NCBI GenBank assembly: GCA_964373225.1
Contig: CAYJTW010000001.1
Coordinates: 1-32,583 of the forward strand
Direction of reading: 5' to 3'
Length of the DNA: 32,583 nucleotides
From: an uncultured Candidatus Peribacteria bacterium
GTDB taxonomy: Bacteria; Patescibacteriota; Gracilibacteria; Peribacterales; Peribacteraceae
Shown here: positions 1 through 29,651 of the stretch, one piece after another
Layout: every line of letters begins with the position of its first letter
Numbering within the stretch: position 1 is the stretch's first letter
Notes under the pieces: generated by a model
Told to the model about the DNA's origin: nothing
Seen by the model: the letters and a program-made list of their open reading frames with translations, nothing else
Database searches by the model: none
Made by a program: the position numbers and the translations under genes

Positions 1-1779
1 CATTTGATCGCCAACCGCGTGCGGAGGCTCGGGGCGTATTCGGAGATTCGCGTTGCGGAGACGAAGGCGAAGGAACTCAAGGGCGCGGCGGGGATCATCC
101 TCAGTGGCGGGCCGCAGAGCGTGTACGAGAAGGGGAGTCCGCAGGCCGATCACGGGATTTTTGAGCTTGGCATTCCCATCCTCGGCCTCTGCTATGGGCA
201 CCAGTGGCTCGCGCACGCGCTCAATGGGAAGGTGAGTCCCGGCAAAACGAAGGAATATGGTCACACGATGATCGAACGGATGGGCGAATCCATGCTTTTC
301 AAAGGACTCCCACAGATCATGACTGTCTGGATGTCGCACGGGGACGAAGTCGCATCTCTTCCCAAAGGGTTTGTCTCCACGGCAAAGTCGTCGGTCTGCT
401 CTGTTGCGGCGATGGCCAATGAGAGCCGAAAAATCTACGGCATCCAGTTTCATATTGAGGTCACACATACCGAGCACGGCATGGAGATACTGAAAAAATT
501 TACGGAGATCTGCAAGCCGGCGCCATGGGGCATCACCTCGTACGCCGACCGCATCGGTGCGGAGATTAAGAAGGAAGTCGGGAAGAAAAAAGTCTTCATG
601 CTCGTCTCCGGCGGCGTCGATTCCACGGTCGCGTTCACGCTCTTGAACAGAGTCCTCGGTCCTTCACGGGTCCAAGGCATGCTCGTCGATACAGGTCTCA
701 TGCGGAAAGATGAGATCAAGCAGATTCAGGCCGCATTCAAGAAGTTGAAGATCAAGAACCTGCATATCGAAGATGCTTCCGAGGAATTCTTCAGGAATTT
801 GAAGGGCGCCACCGATCCGGAGCAGAAGCGAAAGATTATCGGCAGGACGTTCCTGAGTGTTCAGCAGCGGGTGAGTGAGAAGATGGGGCTGACGGGAATG
901 AAAAATGAAAAATTAAAAATGAAAAATGAGTGGTTACTTGGGCAGGGGACAATCTACCCGGATACGATCGAGACCGGAGGCTCAAGGCATGCGGATCAGA
1001 TCAAAACGCACCACAACCGTGTTCATGCCGTGCAGAAGATGATCGATGCGGGGCAGGTGATCGAGCCGCTCAAGGAGCTCTATAAGGATGAAGTCCGGAT
1101 GCTGGGGGAGGAGCTGGGGCTGCCGAAGGAACTCGTGTGGAGGCATCCGTTTCCGGGCCCGGGGCTGGGGGTGCGCATACTCTGCGTGGCCTCAGCGGGT
1201 TCACTGCGGGCGTCACCGTGTGACGCCCTTACCGTGCCGCACGTCGTGCTCCCCATTCGCTCCGTAGGAGTTCAGGGCGATGGTCGCACGTACCGGCATG
1301 CAGTTGCGCTCTTCTCGCGTCATCCATGCAAAGTGACACCCGAGCACAAGTCGCTCGCGACCTCGATCCCGAATACCAATAAGGAGATCAACCGCGTGCT
1401 GCTGTGCACGAGTCACCCTTCGACAGGCTCAGGGCAAGTTCCGGTGGAGTTCTCCGTGACGCCGGGGACGGTCACCCGCGAGCGCGCCGAACTCCTGCGC
1501 GAGGCCGATGCAATCGTTCAACAAGAGATGCGTGCGGCGGATCTCTACGGCGTCATCTGGCAATTCCCGGTCGTTCTGCTCCCGTTCGGTGCGAAGAAGG
1601 GGAATCAGTCGATTGTTCTGCGCCCGATCGTCTCGGTCGATGCGATGACGGCGAATGCGTATCTGGTCGAGCAGAGCGTACTGGAAACAATCACGCGGCG
1701 ACTGCTCGATCTCAAAGGCATTGATACGGTGTTCTTGGATCTGACCAATAAGCCCCCCGGGACGATTGAGTGGGAGTGA
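1..1779 (+). CDS. guaA: GMP synthase (glutamine-hydrolysing); 5' end truncated by window edge
   Basis: GATase motifs GLCYGHQ and QFHIEV, ATP-pyrophosphatase P-loop SGGVDSTV, KRKIIG...QGTIYPD, C-terminal PPGTIEWE. The frame is open to position 1, and the first residues align to about residue 15-20 of full-length GuaA. Confidence 0.95.
   Translation, partial: HLIANRVRRLGAYSEIRVAETKAKELKGAAGIILSGGPQSVYEKGSPQADHGIFELGIPILGLCYGHQWLAHALNGKVSPGKTKEYGHTMIERMGESMLFKGLPQIMTVWMSHGDEVASLPKGFVSTAKSSVCSVAAMANESRKIYGIQFHIEVTHTEHGMEILKKFTEICKPAPWGITSYADRIGAEIKKEVGKKKVFMLVSGGVDSTVAFTLLNRVLGPSRVQGMLVDTGLMRKDEIKQIQAAFKKLKIKNLHIEDASEEFFRNLKGATDPEQKRKIIGRTFLSVQQRVSEKMGLTGMKNEKLKMKNEWLLGQGTIYPDTIETGGSRHADQIKTHHNRVHAVQKMIDAGQVIEPLKELYKDEVRMLGEELGLPKELVWRHPFPGPGLGVRILCVASAGSLRASPCDALTVPHVVLPIRSVGVQGDGRTYRHAVALFSRHPCKVTPEHKSLATSIPNTNKEINRVLLCTSHPSTGSGQVPVEFSVTPGTVTRERAELLREADAIVQQEMRAADLYGVIWQFPVVLLPFGAKKGNQSIVLRPIVSVDAMTANAYLVEQSVLETITRRLLDLKGIDTVFLDLTNKPPGTIEWE
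897..930. repeat. Heptamer tandem array AATGAAA/AATGAAA/AATTAAA/AATGAAA/AATGAG, in-frame inside guaA
   Basis: Read directly from the sequence. Pure A/T/G tract in a GC-rich gene; encodes MKNEKLKMKNE. Confidence 0.9.
1416..1438. repeat. Copy 1 of a dispersed 23-nt element CCCTTCGACAGGCTCAGGGCAAG, in-frame in guaA
   Basis: Near-identical to 16706-16728 (CCCTTCGACAAGCTCAGGGTGAC). Encodes PSTGSGQ here. Confidence 0.8.
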
Positions 1780-4459: not shown

Positions 4460-4522
4460 CGTTAATTGGTTAATTCGTTCACTCGTATTCTGGTAAACGA
4501 ATTAACCAGTTAACGAATTAAC
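4460..4522. promoter_or_regulatory. AT-rich 20-bp inverted repeat (one T/C mismatch, G-U in RNA) with 16-nt loop, plus a third AACGAATTAAC copy, between the anti-sigma gene and efp
   Basis: CGTTAATTGGTTAATTCGTT (4460-4479) pairs with AACGAATTAACCAGTTAACG (4496-4515). AACGAATTAAC repeats at 4512-4522. There is no U-tract after the stem. Confidence 0.6.
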
Positions 4523-4578
4523 GAGCATGTTTGACCTTTCCTTGCGCAATTTCTCTTCCACCATTACCCTCGCATTCC

Positions 4579-5142: not shown

Positions 5143-5307
5143 GGGAATTTTGGCTGTAGGAAGGGCAAAGGGAGCGGGCCTTCGGCCCGCGTTCCACGGG
5201 GCCATGGAACTGAAATTATGTTTTCCTGAAGCCAAAAACTCCATTTTTCATTTTCAATCTTTTTTTCAGGGGCAGATTTCTCTTTGGGGAGGAAGCAGAG
5301 TGTAAAT

Positions 5308-5745
5308 ATGTTTCAGCGCCATCCCATTCAGAATGATGCCATTCTGTTTATCACAACGAATACCGCGAAGAGACGGAAGGTCTTCGGGGAATCTGTCAAT
5401 GCCAGAGAAGCCATAGAAACTCTTTACAGAGTTCAAGAGCTCCATCCATTTATTCTTTATGCATTTGTGATCATGCCGGATCATTGTCATTTACTCATGA
5501 GACCGATTCCTCCCATTCAAGTCTCTACCATCATGAGGGTATTCAAATCCGGTGTGAGTTTTAACTTGGGAATCGGTCCGATTTGGCAGACTCGCTTTCA
5601 TTTGAAGGAAGTTGAGAGTGTCACCAGAGTCATCCAATACATTCATAACAATCCTGTTCGGGCAGGCTTCGCTGAGAGTGCAGAGAAATATCCATGGTCA
5701 TCAGCAAGTGGGCGATGGGAAATCACTGAATGGGGATGCCTGTAG
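5308..5745 (+). CDS. REP-associated tyrosine transposase (RAYT; IS200/IS605-like Y1 HUH transposase)
   Basis: HUH motif in MPDHCHLLM; catalytic-Tyr motif IQYIHNNPVRAG..YPWSS; about 145 aa; flanked by REP hairpins. Confidence 0.85.
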   Translation: MFQRHPIQNDAILFITTNTAKRRKVFGESVNAREAIETLYRVQELHPFILYAFVIMPDHCHLLMRPIPPIQVSTIMRVFKSGVSFNLGIGPIWQTRFHLKEVESVTRVIQYIHNNPVRAGFAESAEKYPWSSASGRWEITEWGCL

Positions 5746-5760
5746 TGTTGCATTTCTTAC

Positions 5761-5827
5761 GCGGGCCGAAGGCCCGCTCCAATAAAAGGCCGAAGGCCCG
5801 CTCCCATGGAAAGCCGAAGGCCCGCTC
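5761..5827. repeat. Three tandem REP copies (core GGCCGAAGGCCCGCTC, 24-nt period); stems shorten from 7 to 4 to 3 bp
   Basis: Read directly: copies at 5761-5780, 5788-5804 and 5813-5827. They lie between the convergent RAYT and gatB genes. Confidence 0.9.
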
Positions 5828-5840
5828 TCTTGGAAGAATC

Positions 5841-7333: not shown

Positions 7334-7362
7334 AGTTTTTAGTTTGTAGTTTGTAGTTTTTT
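7334..7362. repeat. Left arm: heptamer array AGTTTT-TAGTTTG-TAGTTTG-TAGTTTT upstream of the four-helix-bundle gene
   Basis: Its first 19 nt are the exact reverse complement of the end of the right arm (7765-7794). Confidence 0.85.
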
Positions 7363-7405
7363 CGTGACTTGCTCCTGCTTCTCGAAAGCCTTAGAGTAAC
7401 CTGCT

Positions 7406-7789
7406 ATGGGTTCACGCAGTTATAAAGACCTCATTGTGTGGCAGAAAGCTATCTTATTAGTGAAGGAAATCTATGCGATCACGGAGCATTTTCCCCGATC
7501 AGAAAATTTTGGTCTGACAACCCAAATGCAGCGTGCAGCAGTCTCCATTGCTTCCAATATCGCGGAAGGAAGCAAAAGGTCCACCAAAAAGGATTTCCGA
7601 AAATATGTTCATATTGCTTATGGATCTGGTGCGGAACTAGAGACTCAAATTGAAATTGCAAAACAGTTGCCGTTTACAGCGTCTCTGAATTTTCAACTTG
7701 CAGAATCTTTACTCGATGAAATCATGAGAATGCTCAACGGTCTTGCGGCAAGTTTAACTCCCTCAAAAACTCTAAAAACTACAAACTAA
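7406..7789 (+). CDS. Four-helix-bundle protein (23S rRNA intervening-sequence protein / Avd-like family)
   Basis: YKDLIVWQKA..LVKEIY..T..FP..E.FGLTTQMQRAAVSIASNIAEGS.R.T.KDF..Y..IAYGSGAELETQ is the family signature. Confidence 0.88.
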   Translation: MGSRSYKDLIVWQKAILLVKEIYAITEHFPRSENFGLTTQMQRAAVSIASNIAEGSKRSTKKDFRKYVHIAYGSGAELETQIEIAKQLPFTASLNFQLAESLLDEIMRMLNGLAASLTPSKTLKTTN

Positions 7790-7794
7790 AAACT
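7765..7794. repeat. Right arm: AAAAACTC-TAAAAAC-TACAAAC-TAAAAACT, inverted copy of the left arm
   Basis: Overlaps the last codons (KTLKTTN*) of the four-helix-bundle gene and ends 3 nt before the def stop codon. Confidence 0.85.
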
Positions 7795-8244: not shown

Positions 8245-8325
8245 AGAATACTAGAATAATAGAATACTAGGACCCTGAAAAATGAAGTATGTCCGTTCAA
8301 CATTCCTAATATTCTATTATTCTAG
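8245..8325. repeat. Palindromic element built from inverted octamer arrays (AGAATACT AGAATAAT AGAATACT AGGA ... TCCT AATATTCT ATTATTCT AG), 31-nt spacer
   Basis: 22-bp arms (8251-8272 and 8304-8325) with one mismatch. A second family member lies at 27815-27910. Confidence 0.85.
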
Positions 8326-11599: not shown

Positions 11600-12979
11600 T
11601 TATTTACGGGCCAATGCCGCGGTCTTCTCCGCGACGATCCGATTCATTGACGGTGCGCTTGCCATTGCCAGGTCGCAGACCGGAGCGGGCGCGAAGTCCC
11701 CGGAATAGTCGAGCACGTAGGCGGGCATGCCGTGCTCGCCCTCGTCCAGGCCTTCCATTTCCTCCACCGCGCCGACGCGCAGTCCCATGACAGCCTTAAT
11801 CGCGAGCCAGGCGATCGACGAAGCAACCGCGACGAATGCTCCGACGGAGACGACGCCAATCGCCTGCGTCGTCAGCAGGGCCATTCCGCCTCCGTAGAGC
11901 AATCCGTTTGCACCTGTGAAGACGGAACCCGAAGTTGTTGCAAAGAGACCGACCGCGAGCGTCCCCCATATCCCATTCACGAGGTGGACCGAGAGTGCGC
12001 CGACAGGATCGTCCACGCGCAATTTCTCAAACATGAAGACCGCGAGGACCACGAGGATTCCCGCAATGCCACCGATGGCAATCGCGCCGGTCATCGAGAC
12101 GGCGTCGCTGGGAGCCGTGATTGCAACGAGCCCCGCGAGCGTGCCATTCACGATCATGCTCAGGTCGGGTTTCTTCTGCATGTACCACGACGTGAGGAGA
12201 GCGGCCAGCGTTCCCGTTGCGGCGGCGAGGTTCGTCGTGAGCGCGATGTGCGCGATCGCGCGGCCGTCGGCCGCCATGGTACTGCCCGGATTGAACCCGA
12301 ACCAGCCGAGCCAGAGAATGAGCCCGCCGAGCGTGACGCTCGTCATGCTGTGGCCGCGGATCGTCTGCGGCTTCCCCTCGGCGTCGTAGCGTCCAAGCCG
12401 GGGTCCGAGCATGAGAGCGCCCGTGAGCGCGGCCCATCCCCCGATGGAGTGCACCACCGTCGAGCCCGCGAAGTCATGCATGGGCGTTGCGAGTGTCGAG
12501 AGGAATCCGCCGCCCCAGATCCAGTGTCCCGCGACGGGGTAGAGGAAGGCCGTCATCACCACGGAGAACACAACGAATGAGCCGAATTTGATCCGCTCGG
12601 CCACGGCGCCCGAGACGATCGTTGCGGCGGTGCCGGCGAAGACGAGCTGGAAGAAGAACTTCGCCGCCATCGGCACCGATGTCCACTCCAGAGCGCTGAA
12701 CGACGAGGAGCCGTTGATGAGGGCAGGCATGAAGCCGGTGAGGCCGACGAATGCATTGCCGTTGCCGAACATCAGAGCGAAGCCGATCAGCCAGAACGCG
12801 AGGGTCGACACCGCGAAGACGACGTAGTTCTTGGCCAGCACGTTGACGCAGTTCTTGGCGCGGCACAGACCGGATTCCACGAGCGCGAATCCCGCGTTCA
12901 TGAAGAAGACGAGGAAGGCAGCGACAAGCACCCAGACGGTATCGAGGGCGATCTTGAGATCGGGGAGGGCGATTTCCAT
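11600..12979 (-). CDS. amtB: Ammonium transporter
   Basis: FFMNAGFALVESGLCRAKN, DFAGSTVVHSIGGW, and multiple TM segments. Start taken at MEIALPD (12979), because the longer ORF overlaps the glnA stop and the repeat array. Confidence 0.93.
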   Translation of the reverse strand: MEIALPDLKIALDTVWVLVAAFLVFFMNAGFALVESGLCRAKNCVNVLAKNYVVFAVSTLAFWLIGFALMFGNGNAFVGLTGFMPALINGSSSFSALEWTSVPMAAKFFFQLVFAGTAATIVSGAVAERIKFGSFVVFSVVMTAFLYPVAGHWIWGGGFLSTLATPMHDFAGSTVVHSIGGWAALTGALMLGPRLGRYDAEGKPQTIRGHSMTSVTLGGLILWLGWFGFNPGSTMAADGRAIAHIALTTNLAAATGTLAALLTSWYMQKKPDLSMIVNGTLAGLVAITAPSDAVSMTGAIAIGGIAGILVVLAVFMFEKLRVDDPVGALSVHLVNGIWGTLAVGLFATTSGSVFTGANGLLYGGGMALLTTQAIGVVSVGAFVAVASSIAWLAIKAVMGLRVGAVEEMEGLDEGEHGMPAYVLDYSGDFAPAPVCDLAMASAPSMNRIVAEKTAALARK

Positions 12980-12995
12980 GGGGGAGGGGGAACGA

Positions 12996-13027
12996 AATGG
13001 AGAATGGAAAATTGAGAATGGAGAATT
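12996..13027. repeat. Heptamer tandem array AATGGAG/AATGGAA/AATTGAG/AATGGAG/AATT in the glnA-amtB spacer
   Basis: Read directly. It has the same unit pattern (ATG, ATG, ATT, ATG) as the in-frame array in guaA at 897-930. Confidence 0.9.
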
Positions 13028-14555
13028 AAACGTCGTAGTAGCGGAAGAATTCGGATGCGGTCGGACGTTTGGCTTCATCTGCCACGTCGCCGCGCTTCCA
13101 GGCGATGAAGTTCTCGAGGAACGCCTTGGAGAAGACGCCGCCCTTCAGCAGGAATTCGTGATCTTGTTCCAAAGAATCCAGCGCTTCACCGAGGGAAGAC
13201 GGCGCGTGCTTGATCTTGATCAGTTCCGCGGGAGCCATGTCGTAGAGGTTGCCGTCCGTGTGGTCGCCGGGCAGCAGCCCTCGCTCGATGCCGTCCATCC
13301 CCGCGAGGAGCAGCGCGGAGAAGGCGAGGTAGGGGTTGCAGGCGGGGTCGGGCATGCGGAACTCCACGCGCTTGGCCCTGGGATTGTTGCTGTACATCGG
13401 GATGCGGATCGCCGCACTGCGGTTGCGCGCCGAATAGATGAGGTTCACCGGTGCCTCAAAGCCCGGGACGAGACGCTTGTAGCTGTTGGTCGTCGGGTTA
13501 CAGATCGCACAGAGGGCTTTGGCGTGATGGAGGAGACCGGCGATGTAGTGGATGGCCATCTTGCTCAGCCCCGCGTATTCGTTCCCTGCGAAGAGCGGCT
13601 TGCCCTCCTTCCACAAACTCATGTGCACGTGCATGCCGCTGCCGTTATCGCCGAAGAGGGGCTTCGGCATAAACGTCGCGGTCTTGCCGTACCGGTACGC
13701 GACGTTGCGAACGATGTACTTGTAGCGCATGAGTTTATCGGCCATCGTCAGCAGCTCGTCGCGCTCCATGTCGATCTCGGCCTGGCCGGCCGTGGCGACT
13801 TCGTGGTGGAAGGTTTCGATCTTGATGCCCGCGCGCTCCATCTCGCGAACCATCGTCGAGCGCAGGTCCTGCTGGGTATCCATCGGGGAGACCGGGAAGT
13901 AGCCTTCCTTGTGGCGGATCTTGTACCCGAGGTTCCCCCCTTCGCCAAGGCTTCGGGGGGCAGGGCCCGAAAGCTCGTCACGGCCCGTATTCCAGATGCC
14001 TTCATTGGAGTCGACGTCGTACATCGCGCCATGTGCGCTCGTGTCGTACTTGACCGAATCGAAGATGAAGAACTCCGCTTCGGGGCCGAAGTAACCGCTG
14101 TCGGCCACGCTGCTGTTGCGCAAGTACTCCATCGCACGCATCGCCACCGTGCGGGGGCTGCTGTCATAGAACTCGCCCGTGATCGGATCTTTGACGTTGC
14201 AGAGGACCGACACCGTCTGCTCGGTCTTGAAGGCATCGAGGATCGCGGTCGCGGGGTCCGGAACGAGGAGCATGTCGGACTCCTGAATCTGGCGGAACCC
14301 GCGGATGGAACTCCCGTCGAAGCCCGCAGCGGTCTTCAGCACATCCTCAAGCTCGTGGATCGGCTTGCTCGTGTGCTGGAGCGTGCCGGGAACATCGACG
14401 AACGTCAGATCGAGCACGGTGCACTCATGCTTCCTGGCAAATGCCATCACATCTTCCGCGGTCTTCATCTTGGGCGTGAACGAGAGGTCTTCGCCCATGT
14501 GCGGGCGCGGGATTTTCAGTAATTCCTTTTCGAGGGTTCCGGCAGCGGGATTCAT
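13026..14555 (-). CDS. glnA: Glutamine synthetase, type I
   Basis: KPLFGDNGSGMHVHMSLW, SARNRSAAIRIP, RVEFRMPDPACNPYLA, NLYD. The start is uncertain: ATG at 14555, 14498 or 14468. Confidence 0.93.
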   Translation of the reverse strand: MNPAAGTLEKELLKIPRPHMGEDLSFTPKMKTAEDVMAFARKHECTVLDLTFVDVPGTLQHTSKPIHELEDVLKTAAGFDGSSIRGFRQIQESDMLLVPDPATAILDAFKTEQTVSVLCNVKDPITGEFYDSSPRTVAMRAMEYLRNSSVADSGYFGPEAEFFIFDSVKYDTSAHGAMYDVDSNEGIWNTGRDELSGPAPRSLGEGGNLGYKIRHKEGYFPVSPMDTQQDLRSTMVREMERAGIKIETFHHEVATAGQAEIDMERDELLTMADKLMRYKYIVRNVAYRYGKTATFMPKPLFGDNGSGMHVHMSLWKEGKPLFAGNEYAGLSKMAIHYIAGLLHHAKALCAICNPTTNSYKRLVPGFEAPVNLIYSARNRSAAIRIPMYSNNPRAKRVEFRMPDPACNPYLAFSALLLAGMDGIERGLLPGDHTDGNLYDMAPAELIKIKHAPSSLGEALDSLEQDHEFLLKGGVFSKAFLENFIAWKRGDVADEAKRPTASEFFRYYDV

Positions 14556-16705: not shown

Positions 16706-16728
16706 CCCTTCGACAAGCTCAGGGTGAC
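16706..16728. repeat. Copy 2 of the dispersed element CCCTTCGACAAGCTCAGGGTGAC (intergenic, upstream of folA)
   Basis: Matches 1416-1438. This is the sequence class that reads PFDKLR / SPELVEG / LSLSKG in spurious ORFs (the antisense ORF here reads HPELVEGR). Confidence 0.8.
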
Positions 16729-18664: not shown

Positions 18665-19258
18665 TTAGAGACGAACGATCAGTTTGTTCGCCTTTTGATC
18701 GAGCGTTTTGTCCAATAATTCTTTCCAGGTCTTCCCGATGACCGGATGGATACCGGTCGGATCAAGGAGTTCGATCAGTGGTTCCAGGACGAACCGGCGT
18801 TCATGCATGCGCGGATGCGGGACAACGAGTGGGTAGTGAGTAGTGGGTAGTGAGTAGCCACCAACGGAGTCTCCATAGAGCAAGAGGTCCAAATCGATCG
18901 TCCGCGGGCCGAAGCGGAACGGAGGATTCTTCTTCAAATGCCGTTCAATGTGGGTCAAAAATTCATAGATCTCATCGGGAGTCAGATCGGCATCGAGCCT
19001 GGCGACGGCATTGAGGAAGTCATCCTGTTCCTCGTGATGGAGCGGCGCGCTGCGGTAGACGGAGGAGAAGCGGATGGCAGGGTGGCGCTTGCGGAGCATC
19101 GTCGCAGCGGCCTTCAGATTATCCTCCGGGTCGATGTTACTGCCGAGGGCGATGAAAATTAAGGGCACAAAGGAGGCAAAAGAGACAAAAGAGGCAAAGG
19201 GGATGTCATTGTGATCGCCTGACGGTGAGTGCGACGCAGCCGGATTCCGGAATCGCAT
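18665..19258 (-). CDS. folK: 2-amino-4-hydroxy-6-hydroxymethyldihydropteridine pyrophosphokinase (HPPK)
   Basis: [39 protein letters not shown]. The ATG at 19258 overlaps folB by 53 nt. An alternative GTG at 19168 sits immediately before the conserved IALGSN. Confidence 0.85.
18827..18857. repeat. Heptamer tandem array (GAGT GGGTAGT GAGTAGT GGGTAGT GAGTAG), in-frame inside folK
   Basis: Read directly. Encodes [10 protein letters not shown] just before the conserved VPHPRM motif. Confidence 0.85.
19164..19205. repeat. Roughly 9-nt tandem array (GGCACAAAGGA GGCAAAAGA GACAAAAGA GGCAAAGGGGA) at the folB/folK junction
   Basis: Read directly. Lies between the folB stop (19206) and the alternative folK GTG (19168). 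It translates as [11 protein letters not shown] if the long folK start is used. Confidence 0.8.
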
Positions 19259-19556
19259 ATTTCTTCACCGTGACGGTCACTCCAGACGCTCCGTGCTTCT
19301 TGAGTATTATCTGCGCAGCGTCCTCGGCAAATCGTTCTATGGTCTTACGTTCAGTCAACGCAAGTTTCTTCAGATCTTCCGTCACATCGAAGTAGTTGAT
19401 CGATTTCTTGACGTCATCGGTCTTCGCGGCGGCTTTGATATCAAGAGTCATCTCCACGGTGACGAGCAAGCGTTGCTCAGTTTTGCGTTCCTCGGCGGAG
19501 ACGCCGATACGGGTCCAGAGCTCGAGGTCGGTGATGGTGAGCAGATCATGAGACAT
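19206..19556 (-). CDS. folB: Dihydroneopterin aldolase
   Basis: ITDLELWTRIGVSAEERKTEQRLLVTVEM...INYFDV, about 116 aa, directly upstream of folK. Confidence 0.85.
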   Translation of the reverse strand: MSHDLLTITDLELWTRIGVSAEERKTEQRLLVTVEMTLDIKAAAKTDDVKKSINYFDVTEDLKKLALTERKTIERFAEDAAQIILKKHGASGVTVTVKKYAIPESGCVALTVRRSQ

Positions 19557-21982
19557 TATTCATGATGCAGTGTCTTCACTCCAAACAATTCGGGCCTCTC
19601 CGCGAGTGGCGTTTCCGCCAGTCTTCTCAGGAGCCATCGGGTGACGGTGACCGCCGTGAAGAGCGAGAGGAGCACGCCCATGCCGAGGGTGACCGCGAAG
19701 CCGCGGACGATGGAGGATCCGGCCATGAAGAGAATCGTGCAGGTGATGAGGGTCGCGATATTGCCGTCCCGGATGGCCGGCCACGCGTGTTTGAAGCTGC
19801 TTTCGATGGCGGTCTTCACAAGTTTGCCTTTGCGGATTTCTTCCTTCATCCGTTCGAACACGAGCACGTTGGCATCCACGGCCATACCGATGCTCAGGAT
19901 GATACCGGCCATGCCCGCGAGCGTGAGAACGATGTAGTTGCCGGTGAAGAGGAGCAGCGGGAGTTTGAGAATTGCAAAGAGGAGGAGGGCGTAGAAGCCG
20001 AGCGCGAGATCGGCCATCACGCCGAGGATCCGGTACACGACGATCATGTAGAGCATCAGGATGATTGTGCCGAGCAGCGCTGCGAGGAGCGACGTGTGGA
20101 GGGCCGCGGCGCCGAGCGTGGCTTCCACCGTGTACTGCCCCACCAGATAGATGGGCGCCGGGATGGCGCCGGTGTTGAGGTCCTGGGCGAGTTTGCGCGC
20201 TTCGTTAAAATCTCCGCTGCCGGTGATGACGGCGATGCCTCCGGCGATCTCCTGCTGCACGCGCGGGGCCGAGATCATCTCGCCACCGACGAAGATCGCG
20301 ATCTGCTTGCCGACGTTGCGCTTGGTGAGTTCCTGGAAGAGCTTGCCGCCCTCGGCATCGAAGATGATCTGCACCACCGGAATATTCGTGACTGAATCGG
20401 CCGTCACGTTCGCGGCCCGGAAATGTTTACCGTCCAGCGCGGTGTCCTTCCATCCCGTCGGTTCGAGCGAGAAGAAGAGAAGGCGCAGGGTGATGGCGGA
20501 CTCGCGCGATGTCACCTGTCCCGTCTGGAGACGCAGAGCGATGTCGGTGGCGCGCTTCCCGGCGTCCACGCCGGAAATGATCAGCTCGTCGTAGGTCGCG
20601 GTATCGGGCGTCGCGGTCACGGCTTTGTCGAGACGGATGATGTGGTAGCCGAACTGTGTTTCGACGATGCCGGTGATCTCGCCGGGCTTCTTGAGAGCAA
20701 AGACAGCTTCTTCAAACGCGGGAGCCATCACGCCGCGGCCGAAAGAGCCGAGGCTGCCACCATCACTCTTCGACGGGCCGTCGGACTGCGTCCTGGCCAG
20801 CTGCGTGAAGCTGGCGCCGCGGTCGAGACTGGCCTTGAGCGTGGCGGCTTTCTGCAACGCCTGTTCCTTTGTTCTGGTGACTGGGGTCTCTGCACCCGTC
20901 GCCCCCGCGTAACTGACCAGAATATGACTCGCGGCAATTTGCTCCCCGCCGCGGACGAAGGCATTCAAAAAGACGATGCGCGAGGTCGCATCGGTCTGGA
21001 CCTGCCTGAGCGTCCCCGGCTGGGCGCTCCGCAGTGCCGCGGCGACGCGTGCGTCAACGTTGGCATCGACCGGCGCCTTCTCGTGATGCACAGTCGTGGT
21101 TGTTGCTTCGGTCTTCGCGAGGAGCGCGAATGCCCTGGTCGCTTCGCTCACGATACGACCGGTCTCGGTGGGTCCGCGCAGGACTTCGGCCAGAAAGACT
21201 CCGGGAACCTGCTGCCCGGTCTCACTGCCGTCGGCATTTTGTTTCGGCTGCGCGATGCCCCCCTCGCGGAGGACCACGTTGCCCGGTTGCATCGTCCAGA
21301 GATCCTCAAGACCTTTGGGAACCTGGTCACGGAACAGCGTCTTCTGCGGCTGGAACGCCACGCCGAGCTCGCTGCCCATATCCTGGCCTTCCTTCACCAG
21401 CGTCGAACCACTCTGGGCGATCCGCCGGAGCGTCGCCTGCGCCTTTTGCCGGACCCCCCTGGTGAATTCGGCGGTCACTTCGGTGAACGGCTCTTTAAAT
21501 TCCAGCTGGATGGTTTTGCCGACGACTGCAATGCACTCCTGTACGTCGACAACGCCGGGGCATTCCACGAGCAGGTGGCGCTCATTACCGACGTATGACG
21601 GCGTGATGGTCGCTTCGCTGACGCCCAGCGAATTGATGCGGCGTTCGAGAACGGTGCGGATGGCCTCGACGAGATTTGCCTGCTGTTCGGTGATGCTCTG
21701 CTTCTGCGCGCGTGCGAGGTTCACATCCTGCGCGGACGCGCCGCTCTTTTCCAGGCGCGCGATTTCGGCGTTGATATCGTCGAGCTGGGTAGAGATCTCT
21801 TCCTCCGAAATACGAAAGTCGAGCTGCGTTCCTCCGGCCAGGTCCAGTCCCAAGTGGAGCGCGGGGTTCCGGAGGAATCCCGGCGCCCAGGATTTCCACT
21901 GTTGCGGCGCCACGATGAAGACTGCGAACATGCCGATGGCGGCAACGACGAGGGGCCAGGTGAGGGAACGCTTTTGGGTCAT
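19556..21982 (-). CDS. secD: Protein translocase subunit SecD with an embedded parvulin (PpiC-type) PPIase domain
   Basis: N-terminal TM plus LGLDLAGGTQLDF, RRINSLGVSEATI, P1 head GKQIAIFVGGEMISAPRVQQEIAGGIAVITG, and a C-terminal 5-TM bundle (MAVDANVLVFERMKEE). Residues about 347-455 read ASHILV...GGSLGSFGRGVMAPAFEEAVF...FGYHIIRL. Confidence 0.9.
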   Translation of the reverse strand: MTQKRSLTWPLVVAAIGMFAVFIVAPQQWKSWAPGFLRNPALHLGLDLAGGTQLDFRISEEEISTQLDDINAEIARLEKSGASAQDVNLARAQKQSITEQQANLVEAIRTVLERRINSLGVSEATITPSYVGNERHLLVECPGVVDVQECIAVVGKTIQLEFKEPFTEVTAEFTRGVRQKAQATLRRIAQSGSTLVKEGQDMGSELGVAFQPQKTLFRDQVPKGLEDLWTMQPGNVVLREGGIAQPKQNADGSETGQQVPGVFLAEVLRGPTETGRIVSEATRAFALLAKTEATTTTVHHEKAPVDANVDARVAAALRSAQPGTLRQVQTDATSRIVFLNAFVRGGEQIAASHILVSYAGATGAETPVTRTKEQALQKAATLKASLDRGASFTQLARTQSDGPSKSDGGSLGSFGRGVMAPAFEEAVFALKKPGEITGIVETQFGYHIIRLDKAVTATPDTATYDELIISGVDAGKRATDIALRLQTGQVTSRESAITLRLLFFSLEPTGWKDTALDGKHFRAANVTADSVTNIPVVQIIFDAEGGKLFQELTKRNVGKQIAIFVGGEMISAPRVQQEIAGGIAVITGSGDFNEARKLAQDLNTGAIPAPIYLVGQYTVEATLGAAALHTSLLAALLGTIILMLYMIVVYRILGVMADLALGFYALLLFAILKLPLLLFTGNYIVLTLAGMAGIILSIGMAVDANVLVFERMKEEIRKGKLVKTAIESSFKHAWPAIRDGNIATLITCTILFMAGSSIVRGFAVTLGMGVLLSLFTAVTVTRWLLRRLAETPLAERPELFGVKTLHHE

Positions 21983-27817: not shown

Positions 27818-27910
27818 AGCTAGAGTACTAGAATGTTAGAGTATTAGGGACCTCAGACAGTTCAGACTTCATTACACCGGAGTCCTAGTATTCTAGTACT
27901 CTAGTATTCT
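27815..27910. repeat. Second member of the inverted octamer-array palindromic element family (AGAGTACT AGAATGTT AGAGTATT AGGGA ... TCCT AGTATTCT AGTACTCT AGTATTCT)
   Basis: Same unit (AGARTRYT), same AGGR/YCCT junctions and a similar spacer of about 32 nt as 8245-8325. Lies between rlmD and rlmH. Confidence 0.8.
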
Positions 27911-29576: not shown

Positions 29577-29651
29577 GGCCTCATCGTCTAACGGTTAGGA
29601 CAGCAGGTTCTCATCCTGCAAATCGGGGTTCGATTCCCCGTGGGGCTGCCA
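29577..29651 (+). tRNA. tRNA-Glu (anticodon CTC), CCA encoded
   Basis: Folded by hand: acceptor GGCCTCA/TGGGGCT (two G-U pairs), D arm GTCT-AACGGTTA-GGAC, anticodon arm GCAGG-TTCTCAT-CCTGC, T arm CGGGG-TTCGATT-CCCCG, discriminator G, then CCA. A TACAAT box at 29555-29560 sits upstream. Confidence 0.9.

Follow-up and report, generated by a model that had tools for sequence, protein, structure and literature searches.

In an uncultured Candidatus Peribacteria bacterium, the gene for the glutamine-hydrolysing GMP synthase (guaA) carries a short array of seven-nucleotide repeats inside its coding sequence, and the reading frame runs through it unbroken. We studied this array in a 32,583-nt stretch of DNA (assembly GCA_964373225.1, contig CAYJTW010000001.1, positions 1–32,583, forward strand), which we call the window. 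Our preferred interpretation, which we hold to be probable without regarding it as assured, is that the array is a tolerated, inherited passenger, one member of a dispersed family of heptamer arrays that has lodged in a permissive loop of the protein. The gene and the array are located as follows.

4 to 1779, plus strand: guaA, glutamine-hydrolysing GMP synthase; N-terminus cut by the window start; Pfam GATase, NAD_synthase and GMP_synt_C; PDB 5tw7 and 1gpm.
897 to 929, plus strand: heptanucleotide array in guaA; 4.7 copies of AATGAAA, the third unit being AATTAAA; translated as MKNEKLKMKN(E), residues 299–309 of the GuaA open reading frame (ORF).

The letters at 897–930 are AATGAAA AATGAAA AATTAAA AATGAAA AATGAG. 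Read in the guaA frame (ORF 4–1779, plus strand), they supply the codons ATG AAA AAT GAA AAA TTA AAA ATG AAA AAT GAG, or MKNEKLKMKNE, and this peptide is flanked by KRKIIGR and LLGQGTIYPD; the GuaA stretch that spans it is GLTGMKNEKLKMKNEWLLGQGTIYPDTIETGGSR. Tandem Repeats Finder (TRF) describes 897–929 as a head-to-tail array of period 7 with 4.7 copies and 92% matches, above the three copies that we took as the minimum. An earlier examination of the letters by themselves (the sequence-only reading) had described this in-frame array and its peptide, and the letters, TRF and the ORF translation all agree with it. It had also called the array AT-only, which must be corrected: the composition is A23 T6 G4 C0, a GC content of about 12% as against about 57% for the window. 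When the window was searched with the pattern AATGRRR repeated three times (two or fewer mismatches), seven matches at three loci were found (897; 5239, minus strand; 12996), compared with 0.03 in shuffled sequences. The two other loci are these.

12996 to 13027, plus strand: solo AATGGAG-type array (AATGGAG AATGGAA AATTGAG AATGGAG AATTAA) in the spacer between the glnA stop (13026–13028) and the start of the ammonium-transporter gene, amt (12979), both genes being on the minus strand.
5239 to 5259, minus strand: third AATKRRR array (GATTGAA AATGAAA AATGGAG), between the left repetitive extragenic palindromic (REP) hairpin and the start of the gene for a REP-associated tyrosine transposase (RAYT).

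Is the array real? An error of assembly, or a chimera, has some initial appeal in that the sequence is of low complexity and many further contigs in the metagenomes that hold the window match the 33-nt array, the depth rising about tenfold at 888–935 with unrelated flanks. We nevertheless give this explanation virtually no weight. Logan contigs from three independent runs cover the array in its guaA context without gaps, insertions or deletions (X1, 733–1300; X2, 600–985; X3, 603–1070). Because these three assemblies span the array identically, an artefact is ruled out, and homologous arrays stand at the same codon positions in relatives sequenced in other studies. An Rfam scan at the gathering score found no family overlapping the guaA array or the window’s other arrays; its sole match was a tRNA at 29577–29648.

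The protein that hosts the array is well conserved. The best 120 homologues of the window GuaA are all GMP synthases with 63–86% identity, those with a named source belonging to Candidatus Peribacteria or Peregrinibacteria of the candidate phyla radiation (CPR), and GMP synthases in the PDB match it at E = 1e-104 to 1e-108. Most Peribacteria homologues have 25 residues from KRKIIG to QGTIYPD (loop ...MGL-R-IE-DG-WMLG), as against 33 in the window (+8). Relative to E. coli GuaA (1GPM), the window loop is about 12 residues longer, with an alignment gap of 11–12 residues; the sequence-only reading had given a deficit of about 11–12 residues for the E. coli protein, and both this figure and the E. 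coli stretch that it quoted were correct. The insertion is not a clean one: 13 residues (TGMKNEKLKMKNE) stand in place of the usual five (R-I-E-D-G). The PDB chain 7mo6, also a GMP synthase, has a loop that is nearly as long and unrelated in sequence.

We modeled GuaA with AlphaFold2 (AF2), using 61 sequences; the mean predicted local distance difference test score (pLDDT) was 84 and the predicted template modeling score (pTM) was 0.83. In this model, a helix (residues 272–293) leads into a coil (294–309) and then a strand (310–313), and pLDDT falls below 50 at exactly residues 299–307. The low scores suggest that the array encodes a stretch that is probably disordered, in a helix-to-strand surface loop of the ATP-pyrophosphatase domain, which is the outcome that the structural mapping proposed by the sequence-only reading had been meant to check. 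In GuaA, the array would thus add a Lys/Asn/Glu-rich stretch of 11 residues between the KRKIIG helix and the QGTIYPD strand, most likely with no catalytic role. As a separate observation, the window GuaA is a long form of the enzyme: about 95 extra residues (394–487; window 1180–1470) without a counterpart in E. coli GuaA separate the ATP-pyrophosphatase core from the C-terminal dimerisation domain.

The order of the units can be understood from the need to avoid stop codons. A pure AATGAAA array presents a TGA within three units in every frame; therefore, a gene can harbor only variants from which the stop has been removed. When reading begins at ATG, it is unit 3 that supplies the stop, and ATT at this position turns TGA into TTA (Leu). 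The order ATG, ATG, ATT, ATG found in guaA is the minimal change that allows read-through. TTA makes up only 1% of the Leu codons in the window’s genes (9/609), yet it is the codon used here.

The sequence-only reading had remarked that the arrays at 897 and 12996 have this order in common. The order is indeed shared; the two arrays are identical at 25 of 34 positions, and seven of the nine differences are A/G changes at RRR positions. At 12996, a G follows the T/G position, and the resulting TGG is no stop, hence the ATT order is not required there. As a sign of a special link, the order is weak evidence, for all orders occur in unselected arrays: secondary arrays at metagenome loci include every G/T order, an unbiased scan of viral contigs gave TTTT 73 times, GGGG 22 times and GGTG twice among 144, and unselected A-type arrays are often all-ATG and closed in every frame. 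The shared order supports membership in one family and does not demonstrate a direct donor-recipient relationship. Two apparent regularities were also discarded. A universal 21-nt super-period (ATG, ATG, ATT) as a family signature had been forced on the metagenome matches by the search pattern, and the secondary arrays and the viral scan show all orders; a preferred size of 33–35 nt among viral matches is uninformative, as its lower bound was set by the search pattern, and the TRF peak at 4.3–4.9 copies is the better evidence on size.

The guaA array is inherited, and it is neither private to this genome nor recent. At the same codons, the relative at locus L001 (86% amino acid identity) has AGTGAAA AGTGA[TCCTTCGTCAGGCTCAGG]ATTAAA AGTGAAA AGTGAC, in which the bracketed letters are an 18-nt core discussed below, and at the same site L003 (78%) has AATTAAA AGTGATA AATTAAA AGTGAAA AATGAAA. 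The homologous array is in frame in every relative that carries it. The proposal that guaA had acquired a lineage-specific insertion of 11 residues must accordingly be given up, both for these diverged homologues and for at least some 20 changes of the loop across Peribacteria.

These changes make the loop a recurrent hotspot. Other heptamers occupy the same guaA site in other lineages: GGATCAG/GAGTCAG in L134 (about seven units), CCAGCAA/CCAGCTAA in L135, and GCCAAAA/GCCAATG in both L256 and L257; many further homologues have 7-residue periodic peptides there. The loop is expanded in 33 of 121 Peribacteria GuaA sequences, and those for which the DNA was examined contain heptamer arrays. We built a neighbor-joining tree of the 121 sequences with the loop excluded and applied Fitch parsimony to the state of the loop, which was expanded or reset in at least 20 state changes. 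Three homologues with 79–83% identity (P0002, P0003 and P0004) have unrelated loop sequences, and P0010 is almost loop-less. Nor is this the only part of GuaA to be so affected: in P0056, the amidotransferase domain contains AATTGAA AATGGAA AATTGAA AATTGAA (KIENGKLKIEN), with a further array at about residue 431, and L001 and L008 have heptamer arrays in the GuaA loop near residues 395–421.

Period-7 arrays are found genome-wide. We took a census with TRF of Peribacteria contigs amounting to 147 kb (170 kb with two more contigs), the expectation being derived from first-order Markov shuffles. A contig scan with a single protein query found just five Peribacteria loci. In the 147 kb there were 32 period-7 arrays of at least three copies, compared with 0.2 expected, and in the 170 kb there were 50, or one per 3.4 kb. 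Period 7 was dominant, with two, five, seven and four arrays of periods 4, 6, 8 and 9, respectively, in the same 147 kb, and its copy number clustered at 4.3–4.9. About two-thirds of the arrays in these contigs, a sample biased towards the guaA neighborhood, lie in frame within called genes, a distribution that does not match the mainly intergenic one of short tandemly repeated repetitive (STRR) sequences. The genes concerned include guaA (up to three loops), a gene for a Wzy_C-like membrane protein (three to four sites), wecB, RNase T and folK. In the Wzy_C-like gene, a purine-rich array is often followed by its pyrimidine-rich inverse, which is read as an F/S/L/I-rich peptide; arrays in spacers are often inverted pairs that fold into long hairpins (z of -4 to -6).

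Because most arrays in the sampled contigs lie within coding sequences, “intergenic-type”, the label that the sequence-only reading gave to a repeat inserted or expanded inside guaA, is a misnomer, and the event was not a recent one. The rest of that proposal stands: the segment is extra with respect to both E. coli (+12 residues) and the usual Peribacteria loop (+8), the frame is kept, and the array belongs to the same AATKRRR family as the two intergenic arrays of the window.

How do the arrays come to be where they are? In L001, an identical 44-nt segment, composed of an array, the 18-nt core and another array, is present twice, once in the guaA loop and again, 3.4 kb away, in the Wzy_C-like gene. 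Units are also shared within genomes: an identical unit (in any rotation, on either strand) was found in 10.4% of within-genome pairs of arrays vs. 1.4% of between-genome pairs (permutation p of about 0.004), neighbors closer than 200 nt having been left out. L256 and L257, which are 83–89% identical in DNA, have the array of guaA loop 1 in common, while their loop-2 arrays are unrelated (TAGGACA-type vs. CTTCAAG-type). Each loop-2 flavor recurs on its own contig, AGCTTCA at positions 1–30 of L257 and GGACTTA on L256, within an intergenic insert of 132 nt; L256 also has a third flavor, GAATGTA, at three sites, of which one is in RNase T. Finally, L020 and L130 represent one locus recovered from two samples, and exactly one unit is present in one and absent from the other, which points to slippage.

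Because of the 44-nt identity, the genome-specific units, the exchanges between L256 and L257 and the single-unit difference between L020 and L130, we infer that arrays are spread and homogenised by copying between loci and that slippage acts in addition. Turnover would then have two modes. In one, sequence would be copied among the array-bearing loci of one genome, by ectopic conversion or templated insertion; in the other, slippage would add or remove whole units. Selection would retain just the in-frame, stop-free versions at permissive sites, and the outcome would be short heptanucleotide arrays (about 4.5 units; here AATKRRR) dispersed in the spacers and tolerant protein loops of Candidatus Peribacteria.

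The 18-nt core seen in L001 also appears in the window, where guaA has a second small insertion.

1417 to 1440, plus strand: second small in-frame insertion in guaA, core CCTTCGACAGGCTCAGGG (+CAAGTT); PSTGSGQV where relatives have DR; net +18 nt.

The core, CCTTCGACAGGCTCAGG(G), of 17–18 nt, is present in the window at 1417–1434 in guaA and at 16707–16724 upstream of folA. In relatives, it was found inside the heptamer arrays of L001 (that of the guaA loop) and L003, in L008, and at six places in L006, one of which has an 8-bp stem; in L256, too, it interrupts the guaA loop array. L256 and L257 form a clean filled/empty pair: the array of the guaA loop contains a 24-nt insert, AAGCCCATTCGACAAGCTCAGGAC, which is bounded by a direct repeat, AAGCC. 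This repeat may be a target duplication or a part of the element itself.

Arrays of the AATKRRR type are not confined to Peribacteria. We scanned public metagenome contigs with the pattern AATGRRR AATGRRR AATTRRR AATGRRR AAT (31 nt) and obtained at least 120 loci with GC fractions of 0.29–0.66. Among the 120 distinct matches listed, 36 have an inverted partner nearby, and 28 are read in the ATG frame as part of long ORFs. Such ORFs encode, for instance, MRNEKLEMRN, MENGELKMEN and MKNEELRMKN, in enzymes that resemble GlpK, a MiaB-like protein, a GH3 glycosidase, BipA and MalQ, as judged by flanking motifs. At four loci (L028, L105, L108 and L129), a purine array, a loop of 12–16 codons and the inverse array follow one another in frame in long ORFs (MRNEKLEMRN...HSSFLIPHSSF); with the inverse arm in frame, the whole hairpin element would be translated. 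In the IMG/VR loci L137–L216, AATKRRR arrays are common in viral contigs, including metagenome-assembled genomes of giant viruses whose GC is very low. AATT is the prevailing unit in these contigs, and arrays of up to 117 nt occur.

A purely local origin is a rival account, in which the guaA array grew by slippage out of a short seed that happened to lie in a tolerant loop, the other arrays arose independently and nothing was transferred between loci. We consider this unlikely. It agrees with the tandem structure of the arrays and the likeness of units within each, with the single unit gained or lost at the orthologous locus in L020 and L130, and with the different units that different lineages have at the same loop; an over-representation of heptamers is, moreover, known in many bacteria (PMC4692102). 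What it does not readily explain is that the A-rich units are unrelated to the usual loop sequence (CGGATCGAAGACGGC in L007), that a unit flavor recurs within one genome far more than between genomes, that a 44-nt composite is identical in two L001 genes, and that whole arrays have been swapped between relatives as close as L256 and L257. A selected function seems less likely still. Here, either the Lys-rich loop of the protein or the unstructured A-rich stretch of the mRNA would have been recruited, e.g., for partner binding, translation regulation or surface variability. Most Peribacteria GuaA proteins lack the extension, the loop is hypervariable among close relatives, and similar arrays are found in many unrelated proteins and spacers, all of which are awkward for a functional account; in its favor, the array persists down to 78% protein identity, its AT-rich, hydrophilic character is kept in a GC-rich genome, and RNA folding leaves the segment fully unpaired in the mRNA (z = +1.4).

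The unit length of 7 nt, which is not a multiple of three, brings to mind a contingency (phase-variable) locus at which gain or loss of a unit would switch the guaA frame on and off, and unit-number polymorphism does occur at another locus of the same repeat family. This explanation strikes us as very improbable. In guaA, no more than two neighboring units are identical, the others being imperfect copies, which disfavors slippage; contigs of four runs, which as contigs drop rare length variants, have no insertions or deletions at the array; and the homologous array is in frame in all relatives carrying it.

The passenger interpretation itself has several points weighing against it. The guaA array lacks an inverted partner, shows neither a clear target-site duplication nor a clean empty site, and replaces five ancestral residues instead of adding to them. 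For the arrays themselves, we found no enzyme or transposition signature; in a tblastn search, homologues of the window’s RAYT occurred on just two of about 135 other loci, with no enrichment on array-bearing contigs. Sharing of units within genomes could also reflect a shared mutational bias plus slippage, and the contigs sampled for the census are those biased towards guaA. Coverage of the array comes from assembled contigs, in which rare length variants would escape detection, and the neutrality of the guaA array is an assumption on our part. A bolder version of the copying scheme can be put forward, which we regard as doubtful though worth stating: that heptamer mini-arrays of about 30 nt are a distinct class of very small copy-and-paste elements across phyla and viruses, shuttled or converted among fixed tolerant protein loops and intergenic hairpins, that they give many housekeeping and envelope proteins of CPR bacteria rapidly replaceable surface loops, and that the TTCGACARGCTCAGG core is a second element targeting the arrays.

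The window contains further repeats, among them a second heptamer array in a gene and three hairpins made of inverted period-8 arrays.

18828 to 18857, minus strand: second in-frame heptamer array, in folK (HPPK); CTACTCA/CTACCCA, 4.3 copies on the coding strand, encoding 11 residues.
4460 to 4524, no strand assigned: hairpin of inverted period-8 arrays (CGTTAATT / AACGAATT), intergenic between a DUF5667 gene and efp; RNA fold -28.6 kcal/mol, z = -6.2.
8245 to 8325, no strand assigned: hairpin of inverted period-8 arrays (AGAATACT / CTAATATT), intergenic between def and an RNase T-like gene; z = -6.35.
27820 to 27910, no strand assigned: hairpin of inverted period-8 arrays (TAGAGTAT / CTAGTATT), intergenic between a tRNA U5-methyltransferase-like gene and a SPOUT methyltransferase gene; z = -3.9.

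The folK array is placed between the LLYGD and VPHP motifs, and a period-9 array (CAAAAGAGG, 3.4 copies) lies at 19168–19198, at the folB/folK junction and just upstream of the likely folK start. RNA folding leaves the solo arrays at 12996 and 5239 unpaired. Just upstream of the amt start codon, the transcript carries the pyrimidine-rich complement of the 12996 array, which begins directly at the glnA stop codon. A Shine-Dalgarno sequence is lacking at the amt start codon; on the transcript (12979–13028), CCCCCUCCCCC and the pyrimidine-rich complement precede it. The plus strand of the same array is a mini-ORF of 10 codons, MENGKLRMEN*. Between gatB and def (7334–7794) is a gene for a 127-residue “23S rRNA intervening sequence protein” of the four-helix-bundle type (PF05635; weak Avd-like match), flanked by inverted heptamer arrays (AGTTTGT... 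/ ...ACAAACT; 29 nt, 90% complementary). This gene looks like an array-bounded cassette because the gatB-def spacer of L136 is just 72 nt long and lacks it. The minus strand at 19556–21982 encodes an 808-residue SecD-like protein in which a PpiC-type peptidyl-prolyl isomerase (rotamase) domain follows SecD_1st and precedes the P1 head domain, an unusual fusion.

The window’s RAYT gene lies within a complete unit (5171–5835) inserted between efp and gatB.

5308 to 5745: RAYT gene; NCBIfam NF047646, 98.9 bits against a cut-off of 80; Pfam Y1_Tnp.

On the left, the gene is flanked by the REP hairpin GGAGCGGGCCTTCGGCCCGCGT (5171–5192), and on the right by three inverted copies with a spacing of 24 nt (5759–5835). 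In the relatives L001, L136 and L256, no RAYT separates efp from gatB; L008 has a RAYT of 68% identity elsewhere. We considered the RAYT as a mobiliser of the heptamer arrays and found no support for it: its homologues are not enriched as noted above, and the GC-rich flanking REPs (GGGCCTTCGGCCC; GGAGCGGGCCTTCGGCCCGCGT) have no similarity to the arrays.

That heptanucleotide repeats are over-represented in bacteria is an old observation; no origin or role for them is generally accepted, and they have been described as avoiding coding regions. What is new here is a CPR lineage with dense heptamer arrays, most of which keep the reading frame within internal loops of conserved enzymes, and in this lineage the same loops are hit repeatedly and array content is swapped between close relatives. 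Its orthologous loops, filled/empty pairs and genome-specific unit flavors make it a tractable system for studying how repeats are generated and copied. Heptamer arrays account for part of the length variation among CPR proteins, and annotators should be warned that low-complexity stretches in such proteins can be passengers derived from DNA repeats, not functional motifs. If a dedicated copying mechanism does exist, the arrays would be among the smallest mobile elements known.

Several known systems invite comparison. Cyanobacterial STRR sequences, heptanucleotide tandem repeats, were reportedly described by Mazel and colleagues in 1990. Among later examples, GGGNATC repeats in Xanthomonas and Nostoc prefer four units, with over-representation of heptamers in many bacteria (PMC4692102), and TAACTGA repeats are found in Beggiatoaceae, Cyanobacteria and Bacteroidetes (PMC4679880); both are mainly intergenic, being rare in genes or located at protein ends (PMC4692102, PMC4679880). 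The description of complete Peribacteria genomes does not mention heptamer arrays (PMC4736985). Compared with these repeats, the Peribacteria arrays belong to a CPR lineage and, in the contigs sampled, are mostly in frame in internal loops of housekeeping enzymes; their units differ in sequence, vary by locus and are genome-specific.

Small dispersed repeats (SDR) of Nostoc, said to have been described by Elhai and colleagues in 2008, are reportedly about 20–27 nt long and tied to hairpins and tandem heptamer repeats. They resemble the 17–24 nt core TTCGACARGCTCAGG, which lies inside heptamer arrays and has a filled/empty pair in L256 and L257; the core, too, is very short, is conserved at many loci and has both filled and empty sites in close relatives. 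The sequences and the phylum are not those of the Nostoc repeats, and the insertions seen here are in frame in coding sequences. Nostoc SDR are cited in the account of REP and REPIN sequences mobilised by RAYT (PMC3116915), which are likewise short dispersed repeats, and the window has a RAYT gene with REP hairpins of its own. In contrast to REP and REPIN sequences as described there, the heptamer arrays are not copies of the REPs that flank the RAYT, and the guaA array is free of hairpins.

A further comparison is with a family of selfish DNA, the classic case of in-frame repeats in essential genes. Rickettsia palindromic elements (RPEs), reportedly recognised inside protein-coding genes by Ogata and colleagues in Science in 2000, are palindromes of 100–150 bp with a conserved sequence, and they lie in frame in essential genes at surface positions. 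The guaA element differs from them in that it is 33 nt long, is not palindromic and is built of 7-nt units that differ between loci. It is like them in belonging to a dispersed family and in being in frame, at a predicted surface position and probably tolerated in an essential gene; the 120 homologues, the PDB chains and the AF2 model place it as an in-frame insertion at a loop position of a conserved protein. The paired purine and pyrimidine arrays of the Wzy_C-like gene are palindromic as RPEs are, and the hairpin elements of L028, L105, L108 and L129 resemble RPEs at roughly half their size.

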